A DNA stretch of 64,000 nucleotides from Isurus oxyrinchus (Eukaryota): contig JANJGN010000026.1 in NCBI GenBank assembly GCA_026770705.1, forward strand, positions 40,114,001-40,178,000. The letters run 5' to 3'. Shown here one piece after another: positions 431 to 50,040 of this stretch (the stretch's first letter is position 1; each line of letters opens with the position of its first letter). A program made the position numbers and the translations under genes. The notes under the pieces are model-generated. The model worked only from the letters and a program-made list of their open reading frames with translations, searched no databases and was not told where the DNA came from.

Positions 431-938
431 ATATTGTCTGTTCATTCTTCACAGCTGCGATTCTCTTAACTGGTAAATAGCCAAGTTACGCAATTTTCAT
501 TTTGCAGGCTATACTGGCACAGTGATCTTCCTTTTAACTATGTTTTCCTTTTATTTGTAAAGGGCTCCGTTAACATGATAACCCTGATTGTAACAGTGAT
601 AATAAAAAGTTGAAGTTCTGTACTTTGAATTTTCTGCAGACTCGGTGTTACAGGAGCCGGTTGCAGGGGCACAGTTTGAAGGAGACTCGCTGACCATTAA
701 TTTCAGCTATTCGACCACGATTGGTTTCTGCTTCTTGCAACTGTACCGTCAGGAAGGCGAGAGAGCCCCCACAATATTGACCTGTATCCCTTCCGCTGGG
801 GTTGTTTTCACTGCAGAGGGCGCGAGGGCTCGATCATCTGCATCTCTCGACACTTCCAGAAGTGAGGAGAATTTCGCCATCCGTGACCTGCGGCTGCCTG
901 ACAGCGCGGTGTATTACTGCGGGCTGAGAGACACAGTG
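431..938 (+). pseudogene. TCR alpha/delta-type V segment (non-canonical family), probable pseudogene
   Basis: Leader-like FFTAAILLT/G|GTAAAT (~431-472) with no in-frame ATG seen. Acceptor TTTCTGCAG ends at 639. Open V exon DSVLQEP...TINFSY...LQLYRQ...DSAVYYCGLR. Heptamer CACAGTG 932-938, but no nonamer at 23 bp (insertion versus the paralog). Paralog of 18858-19360. Confidence 0.8.
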
Positions 939-1997
939 ACAGGAACCAGAGGGAGCCTTCCTCGTAGAGGAACACTGCAGAAACGTGACCCGTTGAACGG
1001 AATGGCGGGTAGAGTGGGGAGGAACAAAGACTTTCAAAGCATCTAACCGGAATGTGCTCATTGAAAGTAAATCCAAATAAGTAACAACCGGCTAGCAGCA
1101 GGTGCGGCATTTCGAAATTTTCCATTTACATTGAATGCATTCTGAACATCATGTAAAATGTGTTCAGAAAATTCATCCCATTTTGTAAATGAGAGGTACA
1201 ACGGCAGAAATGCTGAGCAAAGTAGTTGACCTTATGTTCCAGCCGGTACAGGGGGTACATACAACACAAATGCAGCATCAGTTATATATCACTGAAGGGA
1301 CGCGCAGCAAAGAAGAACAAAGGCTTTGCATTTTCATGAAGCCTTATCTGGTGTGTTCATATTTCCCAAAGCGCATCCAGTGCTCAAACTTTCTGACATT
1401 GTTAAAAAAAAAGCTTTAGTATTCAGTCGGTTGTCTGAACATCTGTTCCGGTGCCTAAGACACAGCAGCCTGTCCTTGTCGATTATGCAATCTATTAATC
1501 ATTGTTCATCAGCTTCTAATCATGTCTTGAAAATAACCTCTTTGTGCCTGTTTATATTATAGATTCTTAATTTCAATATATGGAAGCAACTAATATTGAG
1601 AGATATTTAATGAGACCATTATCTTTATTCGGATCCTCCTCACCTGGTGGCCTTATGTCCCACAACTGGTTATTTCAACTTAAAAGAGAAACATTTGTTC
1701 CTTTGCCGTGAGTTATTTTATAAACAGCAGTGCACCGATATAAATGGATCCCGGCCACCTTCATGTGTTTGTATTCTCAATGGATATGGCGACCACTGAG
1801 ACATTCCCAAATAAACAACAGGATTCTGCCCCACACATTTAATACAGTAATCAGACTGAATCAATATTCAATGTGAGCGATTTTAGATGGTGCTTATGTG
1901 GATTGTGTCCGTACATGATGGACTGACGTGTCAGTGTCTGACCCGCTGTTATAAACATCCCTCAACAGACACCAGCTGTGCCCCAGAAAACTGCAGC

Positions 1998-2036
1998 AGT
2001 TATTGTGCGAGGTTTTCTCTCGTTCCCATCACTGTG
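1998..2036 (-). other. 23-RSS of V 2037-3077
   Basis: CACAGTG + 23 bp + ACAATAACT on the minus strand. Confidence 0.92.
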
Positions 2037-3077
2037 AGACTCTGTGCACAGTAATAGACCGCGGCGTCAGACAGCCGCAACTCCGAGATAGTCAATCGGT
2101 ACGACTTGTCCGTCTGCTGGACTGTATCAGAAAACCGGCTCTGAGCGAAATCCGCCTTAAATTCTGAACCGCCGCCCGGGAGCCTCCGGACTGCAAACTC
2201 GGGCTGTCTGCCTGGGTACTGCCGGTACCAGAATAAGTAATAAGCATCGTCGGTATAGGTGCAGTCTAAAGCGACATCTTCTCCCTCTGTCTTTGTGACT
2301 GAGGATTTCCGCTGAGTAACAGAAACTCCATCGCTCAGATCTGAAACACACGGTTAAAGAAAGAGGAAATCAGCGATTAAAACTTTCACGGAACAGAACT
2401 GAGGGTGAAAATTCACAGCCAGTGTTACATATATTAAATGTAATTTCGAGCATACAACAGTTCATTCGGCCTAAATGGTCCATCTCCGTGTTTCCATCCC
2501 CGAAGAGCATCCTCACTCTCCTAGCAAATCCTTCCAACCTTTTCTTCCTCTTCCACTTATCTCGTTTCCCTTCATTAAAACTAGAGTCTTTGTCTCAACT
2601 GCTCCTTGTAGCATTGAATTCCTTATTCTAAAAAGTAAAGATAATTGTCATCGATCCCTTATTGAGTCTTTTTCGTGACTCTTATATTTATAACTCATAC
2701 TTTAGAAATCCTCCACAAGTGGAATTATATTTTCCGTCGAACTCCTTAATCATTTTGAAGACCTCTATTCGGTTCCGCCTCAGTTTCTCTTTACCAGAGG
2801 GTAGAACCCCAGTCTGTACAGTTCTTGCTGAATTCCAGTACCATAATTGTAATTGGGTTTCTTTTCATTTTCTTTTGTGGTCTGTGTTCGTCTGATTAAA
2901 GACCAGAACATTTCCCCATAAATCCAAGTGTGGTCCGATCAAGATCCGAAACATGGTTAACATGAATTTTCCGCCTTTTAAATTGATTCTCCCAGAAATT
3001 AAGCCCACTTTTCAAATTTTAAACTTCTTACCGACAATGAATGTGACCCAGGCCATAGCGAGAACGGAGAGCCGCAT
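2037..3077 (-). CDS. Intact TCR alpha/delta V segment (leader 3077-3032, V exon 2340-2037)
   Basis: Leader MRLSVLAMAWVTFIV + GTAAG donor; acceptor TGTTTCAG. V exon DLSDGVSVTQRKSSVTKTEGEDVALDCTYTDDAYYLFWYRQYPGRQPEFAVRRLPGGGSEFKADFAQSRFSDTVQQTDKSYRLTISELRLSDAAVYYCAQS is open with canonical C, W and YYC. Confidence 0.93.
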
Positions 3078-5430: not shown

Positions 5431-5934
5431 GGTTTTTGTGTGGAGTCCGCTTTTCTCTGCAGCAGTGTGGATCTCATGGCACAGAAATACACGGCGGTGT
5501 CAGAGATCACGACCTTACCGATCGGTGATCTTGGCTGTTTTATCGAACGCAGAATTGGTGCGGGCAGCCAAACCTGGGTTGCAGTTTATTATGCCTCCAA
5601 TAATATAAAACATTTTCTGTGGAGGCTCCCCGGGATGCTGACTGTACCAGAGCACAGTAGGATTACCAGCGTTTGTTTTTAAGGTGCAGTTTAGGATGAG
5701 ATTGCCTTCCTCTTCAGCAACCTTTTCAAGAACCGACTGTTCCACTTTGTCTTGGCGGCTCAATTCTAACATAAAATAAGAATAAGAGACATCGATATTG
5801 TTAACATCATCATCATTTCACAAAACAGTGACATCTGGATGAGGGTGTTTCTGGGAATAATGAATTTTTCGTGGGCGTGAACACTTACTGAGAAGGGATA
5901 CAACGATGAGGAGCAGTGTGAGACGGTTCTGCAT
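5431..5934 (-). pseudogene. TCR V pseudogene with intact 23-RSS
   Basis: Leader MQNRLTLLLIVVSLL|GTAAG (5934-5889). V exon 5765-5470 reads ILNCTLK...LWYSQHPGEPP...ITDR* then frameshifted ISDTAVYFCAMR. RSS CACACTG-23-ACAAAAACC at 5469-5431. Confidence 0.88.
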
Positions 5935-18818: not shown

Positions 18819-18857
18819 TGTTTTTGTAGGAGTCTTCCCCTGGTTCCTGTCACTGTG
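18819..18857 (-). other. 23-RSS of V 18858-19360
   Basis: CACAGTG + 23 bp + ACAAAAACA. Confidence 0.93.
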
Positions 18858-19360
18858 TCTTTCAGCCCGCAGTAATACACCGCGCTGTCAGACAGCCGCA
18901 GGTCACGGATGGTGAAATTCCCCTCACTTTTGGAAGTGTCGAGAGATGCAGAAAATCGAGCCCCCACGCCCTCTGCTCTGAAAATATTTCCGTATTTCGG
19001 GATGTAGATCAAGAATGTAGGGGCCTTACCCCGGTCATGACGGTACAGCTGTAAGTAAGGTGCATCAGTAGTGGTCGAATAGCTGTAATGAATGGTCACC
19101 GAGTCTCCTTCAAATTGCATCGCTGTATCTGGTTCCTGTGAGACCGAGCCTGCACCACTAACACCTGCAGCAATTAAAAATAAAGAGCTTTAAGGTTTTA
19201 TTACTTCAGCCCAGTTTATCATGTTGAGTGAGGGATTCTGAATAGAAATAAAACTGAATTGAAACAATGATACCTGCAATAGGAAGATTGTGTAACGTGC
19301 GGACTTACCGGGTAAGAGAGCTGCAGCTGTGAGAAAAGAATAGTAGGTAAAACCCAACAT
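18858..19360 (-). CDS. Open-frame TCR V segment lacking canonical first Cys and core Trp (leader 19360-19309, V exon 19164-18858)
   Basis: MLGFTYYSFLTAAALLP|GTAAG ... CTGCAG|GVSGAGSVSQEPDTAMQFEGDSVTIHYSYSTTTDAPYLQLYRHDRGKAPTFLIYIPKYGNIFRAEGVGARFSASLDTSKSEGNFTIRDLRLSDSAVYYCGLK; no stops. Confidence 0.88.
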
Positions 19361-32316: not shown

Positions 32317-32355
32317 AGTTTTTGTACAGGGGTGAGATTGATTTTCAACACTGTG
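32317..32355 (-). other. 23-RSS of V 32356-32820
   Basis: CACAGTG + 23 bp + ACAAAAACT. Confidence 0.95.
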
Positions 32356-32820
32356 AGTCTGAAAGCGCAGTAATAGACGGCAGCGTCAGTCAGCTGCAGA
32401 CCCGAGATGGTTAAGCTGATAAATTTAGCGGCGGTCAGGAGCCCTGCAGAGAAGCGACTTCTCGCAAATTCTGCCTTTCTTTCATTGTCATTGGTATCCT
32501 TCAACAGTACAAACTGGGGCTCTGTGTCTGGGTGTTGTCGGTACCAGTATAACATATAGCTTCTCCTTGTAGTATCATAGTTACAGTTTAAAGTCACCTC
32601 TTCTCCTTCTGTCTTGACATCTGACGAGAGTAACTGAGTGACAGAGTCCCCATGAGTCCCGTCTGGAAAACAATTTATGAAAACAGAAAGGTTAAGACGA
32701 CAGCTGATTGAAATCTGATTGAAACCATGCCTGGAAAATGAGATAAATATGAAATGTATTCCCTTCACGATTACCTGTCAGAAATGCTGCCCACACAACC
32801 CAGATGCTGAATAGCCGCAT
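32356..32820 (-). CDS. Intact TCR alpha/delta V segment (leader 32820-32775, V exon 32662-32356)
   Basis: MRLFSIWVVWAAFLT|GTAATC ... CCAG|DGTHGDSVTQLLSSDVKTEGEEVTLNCNYDTTRRSYMLYWYRQHPDTEPQFVLLKDTNDNERKAEFARSRFSAGLLTAAKFISLTISGLQLTDAAVYYCAFR. Confidence 0.95.
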
Positions 32821-42279: not shown

Positions 42280-42580
42280 AGATCTGAGCCATGAAGATTC
42301 TGTTATTCAGCCACTATCCGCAAGAGTTAAGACAAAAGTAGAAGAAGTGACCTTAAAATGTACCAATGATGCAACATGGGAAGGCAAATGGTACCAGCAA
42401 TAAGCTGAAACACAGCCAATGCGTAGTTTTATATGCTACCCGAACGGTTCTGTAAAATAAAGCGGATTTTGCTAAAATGCACATATCAGAAGCGTGACAA
42501 AATTCATCACTTTAATCATCACTGGACTGTATCTAACTGACGCTCCAGTTTACTCCTGCTCCCTGAGACTCACTGGGTTG
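42280..42580 (+). pseudogene. TCR V pseudogene (family of V 32356)
   Basis: HEDSVIQPLSARVKTKVEEVTLKCTNDATWEGKWYQQ*AETQP...KFITLIITGLYLTDAPVYSCSLR; degenerate heptamer. Confidence 0.8.
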
Positions 42581-45297: not shown

Positions 45298-45777
45298 ATG
45301 GGAATCCTCCTTGTTTTCACGCTGTGTATCTGTTTACCCCGTGAGTAGCGATCAAACAAACCGACATTGCGTGGATTTAATATAAAGCTGCTCGAGTCAA
45401 TCCCAACTACAGACACTGTCTGGGGTTTTAACCCCGCACTGTGGTTCTCTGATGGTCCATTAAACTCTCTCTGTTTAATTTCCAGGCTTTTTCAGTCAGT
45501 CAGTGACACAGACCCCGGCAGCGGTGACCAGGAAGGAGTGTCGTCAGCCTCTCACCATCACCTGTGTTTTCTCCGGTGCTTCGCGGGATTATTTCCAGAC
45601 GGGATATTTCTTCAGACAAACCCAGACCGGGACAGAGCGGGAGCGGATCTCCAGTGGGGGGAGATTTGTTGTGTCGGTGAATAAAGCACAAAAGACATTT
45701 TCGCTGGAAATTCAGGAATTGAGAGTTGAAGACACCGCCACCTATTACTGTAAAGCTTAGTACCAGTATTACAGATA
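45298..45777 (+). CDS. NAR-TCR variable segment (IgNAR-like V); leader 45298-45340, V exon 45486-45777; in-frame TAG at 45758
   Basis: MGILLVFTLCICLP|GTGAGT ... RFFSQSVTQTPAAVTRKECRQPLTITCVFSGASRDYFQTGYFFRQTQTGTERERISSGGRFVVSVNKAQKTFSLEIQELRVEDTATYYCKA*. VNAR hallmarks: CDR2 deletion, ERIS.GGR, YYCKA; extra FR1 Cys. RSS CACAGTG 45778-45784, 22-bp spacer, ACAAAAACT 45807-45815. Confidence 0.9.
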
Positions 45778-46112
45778 CACAGTGATGGGTCTCAGCTTCC
45801 CACGATACAAAAACTCTCACTGTAGATTATCACAGAAACAAATGAAAGAGCGGAGTTAATCTGCAGTTAAACCCCCACAGTTCCGTGTCACACTGTCTAT
45901 TTTATAATGAGACTGGATTATTGCTGTTAACATCTTGAGTGTGTGTGGATGGTGATGTCTTTCCCGGGATTGGTGTCAGTGAATGGGGATTGGGAATGAT
46001 TGATCCCAGTTAGAAACCCCTAACGCCAGATGTGATCCTGGTCTAACAGCTGGAACCGGGAACCGCTGCCCCCGCTGTTTATGATGTCCCCAAATCTTCG
46101 CAAGTACCCGAG

Positions 46113-46187
46113 GGATTTTCTACTGACTTGTAACACTATGTGGATGGGGTACCTGGAATCACAGTGGGAGAGACCTTAACAAATACC
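46113..46187 (+). other. NAR-TCR D segment (46141-46159) with 12-RSS on both sides
   Basis: GGATTTTCT-12-CACTATG | TGGATGGGGTACCTGGAAT | CACAGTG-12-ACAAATACC; open in all three frames (WMGYLE / GWGTWN / DGVPG). Confidence 0.88.
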
Positions 46188-46493
46188 TCTGCCCAATCAC
46201 AATATAAATTCTCCGCGTCCGGATAGTGAATTGTCGGGTTGATGTTATTATCTCTGGAATCTGATTACAATTCATTGTAATTTCCATTATTCAGTTATCG
46301 TTCTTTGTTGTTCTGCTCGGTTTTTGTGAAGCTATTATCTCGTTCCCGGACCATTTACTCTGAGCTCAGTGCCTTAAAAAGAAGAGTTTGAACTGACAGA
46401 GACTTTGAAAATTGTTTATTTATTTAAATCAGTTGAATAATTGGGCAGTTTCTACTGTCTGATGATGATTTCCCGGCAGGTTAAGGTGTCGGT

Positions 46494-46579
46494 GGTTGTT
46501 GTACCGGGGACACTGAGAGCGGAGTCACTGTGGAAATATTATGTGGATGGATCCGGGACAGTGTTGACTGTTACAGCCG
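46494..46579 (+). CDS. NAR-TCR J segment (46533-46579) with 23-RSS
   Basis: GGTTGTTGT-23-CACTGTG then KYYVDGSGTVLTVTA + G|GTAAGT donor; DGxGTVLTV is IgNAR-like rather than FGxG. Confidence 0.92.
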
Positions 46580-47494
46580 GTAAGTGACTCCATACTCCGC
46601 CGGGTTACAGCCTGTCTCGGGTAATGTTCACCGTCAGTTTATTATTGATATCAGTGGTGTTTGGGGGAGATGTTAGAGTTGACGGAATCTGGACCATTAT
46701 TAGTTCAATGGGCACATCGGGGACACCATCAACACCACGGACTCTCACACTCTGAATCGCTTTTAATGAGCGCAGATTGTCAACACTCAGGACTCCACAC
46801 CCCGTATTAACTGTGACCGAGGCAAATCTATCTGTCACTTAGAGCCCGGGAGCGAGGTCCCAGAGCTTTCTCCTGGGCAGCAGATTGCAGCCTGAGCCGC
46901 ACAATGTGAATGAGGTACCGGGTGAATAAACTCAATACAACTGCGGCCAGTTCGGATACCTGCAGTGGCTCGTTCCAGACCTGACCCGGAAGAAAAACGG
47001 GAAAGTGACACAAGGGGCCTCAGATATATGAGATACTGATGTGAGTCCAGGTTGAATTCTATATTTGGACAATCAGTCACGAAAATTAGTGACATTGTCT
47101 GTGCCATTTCTTTCAATTGCCTTTATAGAACCAATCACTTTCCTCCTTTTCCGTCCTTAAAATGAAATGTGAAAGTTTGGAAATGCAGACACTTCTCTAT
47201 ATTGAATGTAGATGTTTGAGATATGGGGTTGCTGTAATTTATCTGTAATTCTGATTCCTGTGAACTGAAACAGCATAGTGCAGTGAGAAAGTGAGGATGA
47301 TGTATTAATCTTATAAAGGAGAAAAGGGACATAAGGAAACAATTATAAACAAGGAGAATGCTCATTTAGAACCAGCAAGAAAAAAATAATCGAAAGGGAG
47401 AGAACGATTGGACGATTTCTGGGCGATTTTCAAAGTAGTTTCCGACTCGGTGGTAGGTGAGGTTTATGGAGGGAAGGACTGAAATAGACTCCAG

Positions 47495-48040
47495 TCCGGA
47501 ATGCTGTGTAAAGTTTTGGTCCCCTTACAGAAGGGAGATCAATCGTCATTGGAATGAGTGCAACAAAGATTCATCAGACTGATTCGTGAGATGAAGGGAT
47601 TGCCCAATGGGATGAGATTTAGTCGTCTCGGCCTATATTTCTTAGAGTTTAGAAGAATGAGAGGTGATCGCATGAAAACATATAATATTCTGCAGGGACT
47701 TGATAGGGCAGATTCTGTGTCAGTGTCTCCCCAGACTGAGGAGTATATAACTCGGGGTCACAGCTTCAGAATAAAGAGTCATCGATTAGAACTGAGAAGG
47801 AAAATAAATCTTCAATAGAACCACTGTTGTTAATCTGTGGCATTCTGTAACTCAGAGAGCGGTGGGTGTTCATAATCTGTATGCATTCTAGACAACATTC
47901 GATAGGTTTTCGGACACTAAAGGGATCAGGGATATGGGGAGAGTGCGGGAATGTGACGTTGCGGTTGTAAATCAGCCAGGATATTACTGAATGTCTGAGC
48001 AGGTTTGAAAGGTGATATGGTGGCTCCTGCTTCTATTGAT
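47495..48040 (+). mobile_element. CR1-type LINE 3' fragment in the J-V intron
   Basis: VQQRFIRLI...RLGLYFLEFRRMRGD...TRGHSFRI. Confidence 0.85.
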
Positions 48041-49515
48041 TGGATTCTCTGCTTTGGTTTCTTACACTCCTGAGGGAAGAAACAATCATCAACAATCCAC
48101 ATCTCTCTGGGAAGATTGAACAGGCTGGTTCTCTTTTTTCTGGAATACAGAACCACAAGGAGAATCCATATAAATCTTTCAATATTGAACGGGTTTAACC
48201 TGGACAAGTTGAGTCTAAAGCAATAGCTGTCAACACATGATAGTAGCTAACAGAACAGATCAAACATTTAAGACAAATGAATTTAAACAAAGGCAGGTCA
48301 GAATGTGGAACTTGCTGCCTCAGGGAGAGGTTGGAGAAAGTATTGATATATTTATTGGATCACTTGAAAAAAGAGGAGGGAGAATGGAACAGACCAACAC
48401 AGGGAGCTGGATGTAAATGGTCAATTAGATTTCTGGTGGGGTCCGGCTGGAGTTGATTATATACACAGGCTGAATGGCCCATTCCTCTTCCGCATTCTTC
48501 TTCCTCGATAATGTAAAATTGAGAGAAAACTCCGGCCAGAGAACCTGCGACAGAATCAGTTAACGTGCGGAAAGAATTGAAATTGTCAGAGAGCCGGAAG
48601 AGGCAGTTCCCAGTGAGTAACAGTAAAACCACTGCGGAAACTGAACAGACTGAACCCAACCGACAACTGAGAGAGATTGGGACAAGTTCCCACGGTTGCA
48701 AAAAAGGCAACAGCATATAATAAATGTGAAATAAAGGGAATGTGAAATTAAAGAAATAAAATGAAATTAATTGCACCTATTTGATATTAAGCTGAACTGG
48801 AGAAAATAAGACCCTATTGACAGAGCATAATGAAATAGAGCAAAAGGCAGATAGAAATTCCTGAGCAGTTATAAACCGCAGTAAGTGATTGACCTTTCAC
48901 CACGAGAGATGCTCACTCTTGGTTTGGCCCAATCGGTGCGGATGAACCCCATCAGTTTATGTTGGATTTTGCTATGCGCAGTGATGCCACACAGCTGTGT
49001 CCCTCTCTGACAAACATGGTTTTTTTGGAAACTGGTTGCCTTGCTGAACATAAAATACTCCCTCGTGTTTGTTTCTCACCAAGGAAAATAGAAACAGGAA
49101 TGTAATATAATTCATAGAATTATCCAGCACGGAAGGATGATATTCGGCCAATTGTGTTGGCGCTGACCCTTTAAAAGTGCAATATAAATGTTCCCACGGC
49201 CCATGAATTTACTCTAGAGCTCTATATTTGTATTTACATTTCCAATACAGACCCGTTATCCGTTTGAAAGTCACTATTGAATCTATCCCCTACACCAATT
49301 CAGGCAGTGCAGTCCTGATCGGAAGAACTCGCGACGTAAAATAAAACATCACCTCATCCCCCATTTAGTCATATTTTCATAACAGTGAACATGGTTCAAA
49401 TAGGCTTCCAGCAAGTTAAATTACGCAAAAAGCAGAGCTATTCGCGCGATTGACAGATTCTCCTGGACAAACAGTGGCTGAACAAAAAGATAGTGTTCAT
49501 TTTCTTATCCTACAG

Positions 49516-49815
49516 ATTTCAGTTCCATAATTTCCTGGATTTCGCCTCTACAAATGTCTGCTGTCGGTGACACCGTTACTTTAAACTGTGAATATTCAGG
49601 GTTCTGCACAGTACACTGGTACCGTCAGTCCCCAGGACAGGCTCCTGAATATCTTCTTCAGAGACGCACTTCAGGAGAGGAGAATAAAGAAAACGCTGCC
49701 GGGGGGAGAATTTTTGCTTCTATCGATTCTACCGAGAAAATCAGCTGGTTAACGATCTCCGAACTACAACTAAGCGACTCCATTGTTTATTACTGTGAAC
49801 TGAGTCGGTGCACAG
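49516..49815 (+). CDS. Leaderless 'supporting' TCR delta V of NAR-TCR
   Basis: Acceptor CCTACAG ends 49515, phase-compatible with the NAR J donor. DFSSIISWISPLQMSAVGDTVTLNCEYSGFCTVHWYRQSPGQAPEYLLQRRTSGEENKENAAGGRIFASIDSTEKISWLTISELQLSDSIVYYCELSRCT; extra CDR1 Cys; no leader exon found upstream. Confidence 0.9.
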
Positions 49816-50040
49816 CACAGTGATATAGAACACGGAGGGAGCTGTACAAAAACCTCAACATAGTGAGGATTAGAGATACTTAGTGATGCAGAGCACGGAG
49901 AGAGCTGTACAAAAACCATGAACATGTTGGAATTACAGACACACAGTGACACAGAGCACTGAGAGAGCTGTACGAAAACCTGAACATTGTGGGATTACAG
50001 ACACAGTGATACAAGGCACAGAAAGAGTTCAAATAATTGT
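49816..50040 (+). repeat. Tandem array of four 23-RSS units (period 63/63/60 bp)
   Basis: CACAGTG 49816/ACAAAAACC 49846; CTTAGTG 49879/ACAAAAACC 49909; CACAGTG 49942/ACGAAAACC 49972; CACAGTG 50002/nonamer lost. Confidence 0.92.

Follow-up and report, generated by a model that had tools for sequence, protein, structure and literature searches.

A shark TCR alpha/delta V family without Cys23 and Trp41 in Isurus oxyrinchus, and its match to nurse shark alpha V10

The V segment, its neighbours and its paralog

The window (the whole 64,000-nucleotide stretch of Isurus oxyrinchus DNA that was analysed) contains a V segment with the layout of a rearranging TCR alpha/delta V: a leader exon, a GT-AG intron, an open V exon and a 23-spacer RSS (Table 1). 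The first-pass annotation had described this segment as having an intact leader, splice sites, open frame and 23-RSS, with Tyr at IMGT position 23 and Leu at position 41, and all of these were found again in the sequence. All 11 canonical V segments of this genome that were aligned with the focal V have Cys23 and Trp41. Of the residues that define an IMGT ‘functional’ gene, the focal V lacks 1st-CYS 23 (Tyr) and CONSERVED-TRP 41 (Leu); it has 2nd-CYS 104 and the hydrophobic 89, and Cys104 and Phe89 are present in all 19 intact copies of the family to which it belongs.

Table 1. Features of the focal V segment and of its paralog (window positions)
Feature	Position	Strand	Evidence
Leader exon (L-PART1), 52 nt, ATG to phase-1 donor	19309..19360	-	sequence; joined to V exon in a run X1 contig
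Leader intron, 144 nt, GT-AG	19165..19308	-	sequence; absent from one run X1 contig
V exon, alpha-V10-like family, open frame	18858..19164	-	sequence; predicted V-set fold, mean pLDDT 92
Tyr codon, IMGT 23 (canonical first Cys)	19085..19087	-	alignment
Leu codon, IMGT 41 (canonical Trp)	19046..19048	-	alignment
Gly codon, IMGT 87, putative room for Tyr/Phe23	18920..18922	-	alignment
Phe codon, IMGT 89, putative filler of the Trp41 gap	18914..18916	-	alignment
Cys codon, IMGT 104, usual partner missing	18869..18871	-	alignment
23-spacer RSS: heptamer CACAGTG, nonamer one letter off consensus	18819..18857	-	sequence
Broken leader of paralog: start codon reads ATA, length reduced by 10 nt, stop in frame	431..472	+	sequence
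Paralog V exon, pseudogene: Phe23, Leu41, Glu87, two extra Cys	640..931	+	sequence, alignment
Paralog RSS: heptamer intact, nonamer broken	932..970	+	sequence

The neighbours of the focal V in the window are canonical TCR alpha/delta-type V segments and a NAR-TCR-like cassette. Four V segments, at 2036-2330 (-), 32355-32650 (-), 5469-5800 (-) and approximately 42280-42560 (+), comprise two canonical ones, with Cys23 and Trp41, and two that are broken. The region from 45400 to 50000 holds a V with an RSS at 45778, a 12-spacer RSS at 46160 and an inverted 23-RSS at 46532; a second V ends near 49816, and beyond it, at 49942, lies a repeated RSS. This arrangement is presumably the NAR-TCR-like cassette, its first V being IgNAR-like.

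The paralog at the other end of Table 1 had been presented as a second copy of the gene in which the frames had stayed open. Its open V exon, Phe23, Leu41 and two extra cysteines stand; its standing as an intact gene does not, since both leader and nonamer are broken. No ATG for a leader was found between positions 331 and 480, the leader remnant has 42 nt against 52 nt and carries an in-frame stop, and six of the nine nonamer letters are mismatched. The paralog belongs to a subfamily in which none of the nine full-length copies can be spliced to a reading frame and the nonamer is broken in all of them, and which forms a 100/100-supported group inside the family in a tree of 45 rows. The extra cysteines in CDR1 and in the CDR2 flank are confined to this dead subfamily. 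As the paralog is a pseudogene, they are uninformative on function, and the functional weight once given to them was dropped. In the same subfamily (L039-L046 and window 640-931) CDR1+2 dN was 0.206 against a dS of 0.033, values that come from few sites and may reflect noise, or conversion from other copies.

Seven sequencing runs of the species were aligned to the window. Contigs on the stretch were obtained from runs X1 and X5; none came from X14, X10, X8, X11 or X12, and nothing about expression follows from this. None of the listed runs is recorded as RNA. In one X1 contig (depth 3.8) the leader is spliced to the V exon, and five letters out of 156 differ from the window. A contig that lacks the leader intron and differs at five positions indicates that a near copy of the focal gene was transcribed and spliced. 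Two of the differences fall in the V part of the contig at unlisted positions, and the contig is therefore no witness for the Tyr23 codon. No V-J junction was found in the contigs of the seven runs.

Family size, descent and selection

The own-genome search returned 1052 candidates, and the family counts rest on the 150 that were scored. These give at least 78 family loci: at least 50 on contig C26 (23-40 Mb) and at least 28 on small contigs, which may be second haplotypes. The sequences examined were the 50 C26 copies, including the window paralog, eight of the 28 small-contig copies and 13 canonical V controls. A copy was called intact if it had a spliced open frame, the heptamer CACAGTG and a nonamer with no more than one mismatch. 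By this definition 19 of the 50 C26 copies are intact (17 distinct sequences), six are weak-signal copies, open in frame but with a poor RSS or splice site, and 25 fail because they are truncated or interrupted by stops or frameshifts, because their RSS is broken or because no leader was found. Want of a leader is the sole defect of L038, the status of which is uncertain. In three otherwise intact copies (L007, L008 and L009) a TGA stop takes the very place of the Cys104 codon.

Cys23 and Trp41 are absent from all 56 readable copies, i.e., 48 of the 50 on C26 and all eight from small contigs. The protein identity of the intact copies ranges from 61 to 100%; residue 23 is Tyr in 16 of them and Phe in three, and residue 41 is Leu in all 19, encoded by four different codons. 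A tree was made from 45 rows, of which 34 were family copies and 11 canonical; 16 C26 copies, the small-contig copies and two canonical segments were left out. The 34 family rows lie on one side of a branch with 100/99 support and the 11 canonical rows on the other, and a single loss of Cys23 and Trp41, predating the expansion of the family, would most simply account for this placement.

A block that combines a canonical V with a dead family copy and, 18-19 kb further on, an intact copy was observed three times on C26 (near 35.13-35.15, 35.60-35.61 and 40.11-40.13 Mb) and also on C151 and C152. It may represent real duplication or assembled haplotypes.

The presence of family copies in repeated blocks, and the number of copies that fail the gene test (25 of 50, or 31 of 50 if weak-signal copies are added), lend support to the view that these are ORF-type segments, spread by segmental duplication and gene conversion, which are rearranged and transcribed and give no folded surface receptor. 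The IMGT rules favor the same view, in that a V classed as ‘functional’ must have Cys23, Trp41 and Cys104 (PMC8559430). So does the homogenised 3' third of the V exon, which is shared by dead copies. Codons 65-97 (window 18860-18958) are 93-94% identical to those of the focal copy in seven of seven family copies, dead ones included, whereas the 5' two thirds of the V reach 65-85%; identity at the third positions of codons 65-97 is 88-97%. The pattern suggests gene conversion in the 3' third, or a constraint at the DNA level beside the RSS. Because even dead copies are alike across these codons, the conservation of Gly87, Phe89 and Cys104 within this genome may not mean constraint on the protein.

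The framework codons argue against ORF-type segments of this kind. The first-pass annotation had proposed dN/dS as a check, and it was calculated by the pairwise Nei-Gojobori method over 81 framework codons with a codon bootstrap. The value was 0.48 (0.31-0.74) for the 17 distinct intact copies, from pairs that are not independent and with shared ancestry ignored, and is thus below 1. Six copies of a canonical family gave 0.39 (0.22-0.71), and seven distinct dead copies gave 0.84 (0.39-2.27), an interval that overlaps that of the intact copies. With codons 65-97 excluded, the intact copies gave an estimate of 0.46 (0.28-0.75) and the dead ones 1.16 (0.42-4.77), and the intact frameworks are therefore below 1 beyond the homogenised part as well. 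CDR1+2 of the intact copies had a dN/dS of 1.0. A set of 16 core residues gave 0.15 (0.05-0.39), a figure that carries no weight as the set was picked after the alignment had been viewed. On these comparisons of sequence, purifying selection acts on the frameworks of the intact copies; in the dead subfamily, the deep branches may be older than its death. The retention of Leu41 through four different codons likewise counts against segments that yield no folded receptor.

Nurse shark alpha V10 transcripts

The primer table of Ott 2018 (PMC5931798) lists a nurse shark alpha V10 leader primer that resembles the focal leader. The available Table 1 source data of the same paper contain 45 alpha V10 cDNA rows, amplified from V leader to C-alpha, which were translated by eye and stand outside the 45-row tree. 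Cys23 and Trp41 are missing from all 45 of these rows, and Gly87 and Phe89 are present in all of them (PMC5931798). The 43 V10.1 rows have Tyr23, Leu41, Gly87, Phe89 and Cys104, and the two remaining rows have Phe23, Phe41, Gly87 and Phe89. In the alpha V1 rows viewed, Cys23 and Trp41 are present. A hand count of the commonest V10.1 against the focal V gave 64 identical residues of 96 in a gap-free alignment, compared with an identity range of 34-42% for canonical V segments of the Isurus oxyrinchus genome. In this identity, in Tyr or Phe at 23, in Leu or Phe at 41, in Gly87 and Phe89 and in the leader primer motif, the focal family matches the nurse shark TCR alpha V10 family, as far as the sequences available from that shark extend. 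It had been allowed earlier that relatives might retain Cys23 and Trp41, in which case the copies here would be just decaying ones; the 45 nurse shark rows without either residue speak for the opposite. The idea of an isolated gene in decay was rejected for the focal copy, as the loss of the residues is family-wide and common to nurse shark.

The search for in-frame shark transcripts using such a V, suggested at the outset, has its answer in nurse shark, where alpha V10 undergoes rearrangement and is read in frame. All 41 clones in which mutation was analysed, 13 alpha V10 clones among them, are stated to be in frame and stop-free (PMC5931798), and 24 distinct alpha V10 joins can be counted in the available rows. 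Since a separate leader primer served to amplify alpha V10, the rows give no repertoire share. Fifteen of the 45 rows bear the label ‘V’, which by the naming used in the paper presumably stands for spiral valve, and hence for a site outside the thymus.

Two differences separate the species. Two V10 genes were counted from cDNA in nurse shark, whereas in Isurus oxyrinchus at least 50 copies lie on one contig, with 19 of 50 intact; and the 3' end of the nurse shark sequence was found in none of the Isurus oxyrinchus copies examined. One alpha V10.2 row (PMC5931798, supplement 3, row 447) is trimmed before Cys104 in the form available; if it is in frame, all three hallmark residues would be missing from it. 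The main text of PMC5931798 does not contain the words ‘tryptophan’ or ‘disulfide’, and both uses of ‘cysteine’ refer to beta-2 microglobulin primers.

The nurse shark rows bear directly on the ORF-type alternative. The four core changes are identical in this second shark, and its transcripts, as far as the available rows go, are in frame and clonally repeated. The support for the family is at the level of genes and transcripts, which leaves the alternative some room; together with the framework constraint, the nurse shark data make it unlikely. The first-pass annotation had envisaged a lineage of V domains without a Cys23-Cys104 bond, and such a lineage is borne out by 56 of 56 copies here, by 45 of 45 nurse shark rows, by constrained frameworks and by in-frame rearrangement in nurse shark. 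The V family is real, and it is likely functional and disulfide-free.

Core packing, Cys104 and known V domains

In V-set topology, with IMGT numbering, positions 23 and 87 are neighbours across strands B and E, and position 89 is packed onto 41. Compensation would therefore be expected as a small side chain at 87 and a bulkier one at 89. Position 87 is Gly in all 19 intact copies, Glu in the nine dead copies, and Val, Thr, Tyr, Ser or Ile in the 11 canonical segments; position 89 is Phe in all 19 intact copies and Leu or Met in all 11 canonical segments. Gly87 and Phe89, fixed in both sharks, likely repack the core.

Whether the domain can fold had also been raised as a question for prediction, and the predicted structure is a V-set one. 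AlphaFold2, given the V exon and a 33-row alignment (11 rows of which were canonical V) and with the J-encoded G strand absent, returned a V-type sandwich with a pLDDT of 92.1. The model has TM scores of 0.77-0.88 to solved V domains, and all fold matches listed are V-type; a sequence search of solved structures matched only generic antibody V domains. The model shows that the sequence is compatible with a V-set fold and does not imply stability.

The reading regarded as probable places the focal V, as an intact copy, in a shark TCR alpha/delta V family that has undergone expansion; the segment is likely joined by RAG to a J-alpha and likely folds without the disulfide by means of a repacked core. 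The 23-RSS of the V would be joined by RAG to a J-alpha, a joining that is shown for nurse shark, the rearranged transcript would be spliced to C-alpha, and the alpha chain would pair with a beta chain. Within the domain, Gly87 would house the ring of Tyr23 or Phe23, Phe89 would occupy the Trp41 gap beside Leu41, and Cys104 would stay buried and reduced, with no Cys23-Cys104 bond. By extension from nurse shark, we infer that the focal copy is rearranged in Isurus oxyrinchus, and that its product is expressed at the surface with a beta chain.

V-type folds with a missing disulfide are known elsewhere. The V-set domains of CD2, CD58 and CEA keep their fold without the B-F disulfide through other core packing; their genes lack an RSS and are not rearranged, in contrast to the shark V with its 23-RSS. 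A natural antibody that lacks a VH cysteine (Proba 1997) is among the references of PMC5734687. The antibody is said to work without the canonical disulfide and to contain one buried free Cys. We know of no Trp41 loss in that antibody, which is reportedly a single molecule, whereas the shark case is a germline family.

A further likeness is found in salmonid TRAV1, an expressed V-alpha subgroup present in several teleost families in which Cys23 is replaced by Tyr (PMC8559430), so that Tyr at 23 of a V-alpha is common to both. No further structural peculiarity of TRAV1 is reported in the available portion of that paper, and Trp41 therefore appears to be kept, unlike in the shark family, which lacks both residues. 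The shark family has thus already been named, as nurse shark alpha V10, and half of its oddity has a teleost precedent in TRAV1. For the joint loss of Cys23 and Trp41, the two candidate compensating changes and some 19 intact genes, no description was found. No remark on a shark V lacking Cys23 and Trp41 was found in the literature searched; Criscitiello 2010, Deiss 2019 and Ott 2020/2021 may hold one. Two DNA motifs of the family had no match in 11 of the 19 supplement files of PMC10322711.

Cys23, Trp41 and Cys104 are taken both as requirements for a working V domain and as filters in annotation (PMC12529555; PMC8559430). Rules based on IMGT would not class the shark family as functional, and shark TCR annotation may discard a working family. 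A constrained, expanded and rearranged family that does without two of the three in two sharks would let nature show which residues a TCR V domain requires for folding, and it singles out four positions (23, 41, 87 and 89) for testing. If stable, a natural V framework free of the disulfide could be of interest to antibody engineers.

A wider reading can be offered tentatively, and is rather doubtful as a whole: that this is an old, dedicated alpha V class with a rebuilt core, selected in the thymus and reaching the gut, with approximately 20 working genes in Isurus oxyrinchus and marking a subset of T cells that would have a ligand to itself or a more pliable binding site.

Retention of Cys104 in the absence of its usual partner raises the idea that it is kept for a new disulfide with a cysteine in CDR3 or in a partner chain, as put forward in the first-pass annotation, or with one elsewhere in the domain. 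Cys104 is indeed present in 19 of 19 intact copies and in all 43 alpha V10.1 rows available, a Cys at IMGT 43 occurs in three of the 19 intact copies, and a Cys stands in the CDR3 of one join from nurse shark. However, position 104 points into the core of the sandwich. The enrichment of CDR3 cysteines that had been predicted was not seen in nurse shark alpha V10, as a Cys was added in only 1 of 24 distinct joins, counted over the visible part of each join with the J-encoded part beyond view. A second Cys within the V is absent from 15 of the 19 intact copies, the cysteines cited for CDR1 and the CDR2 flank come from a pseudogene and its dead subfamily, and one alpha V10.2 row ends before Cys104. 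Re-pairing of Cys104 is accordingly considered very improbable, and a buried, reduced Cys104 is preferred.

The Cys at IMGT 43 stands in place of Arg, and besides the three intact copies it was observed in three of the six weak-signal copies and in one truncated copy (L025, L036, L037, L019, L022, L023 and L017 in all); it is possibly a CpG change.
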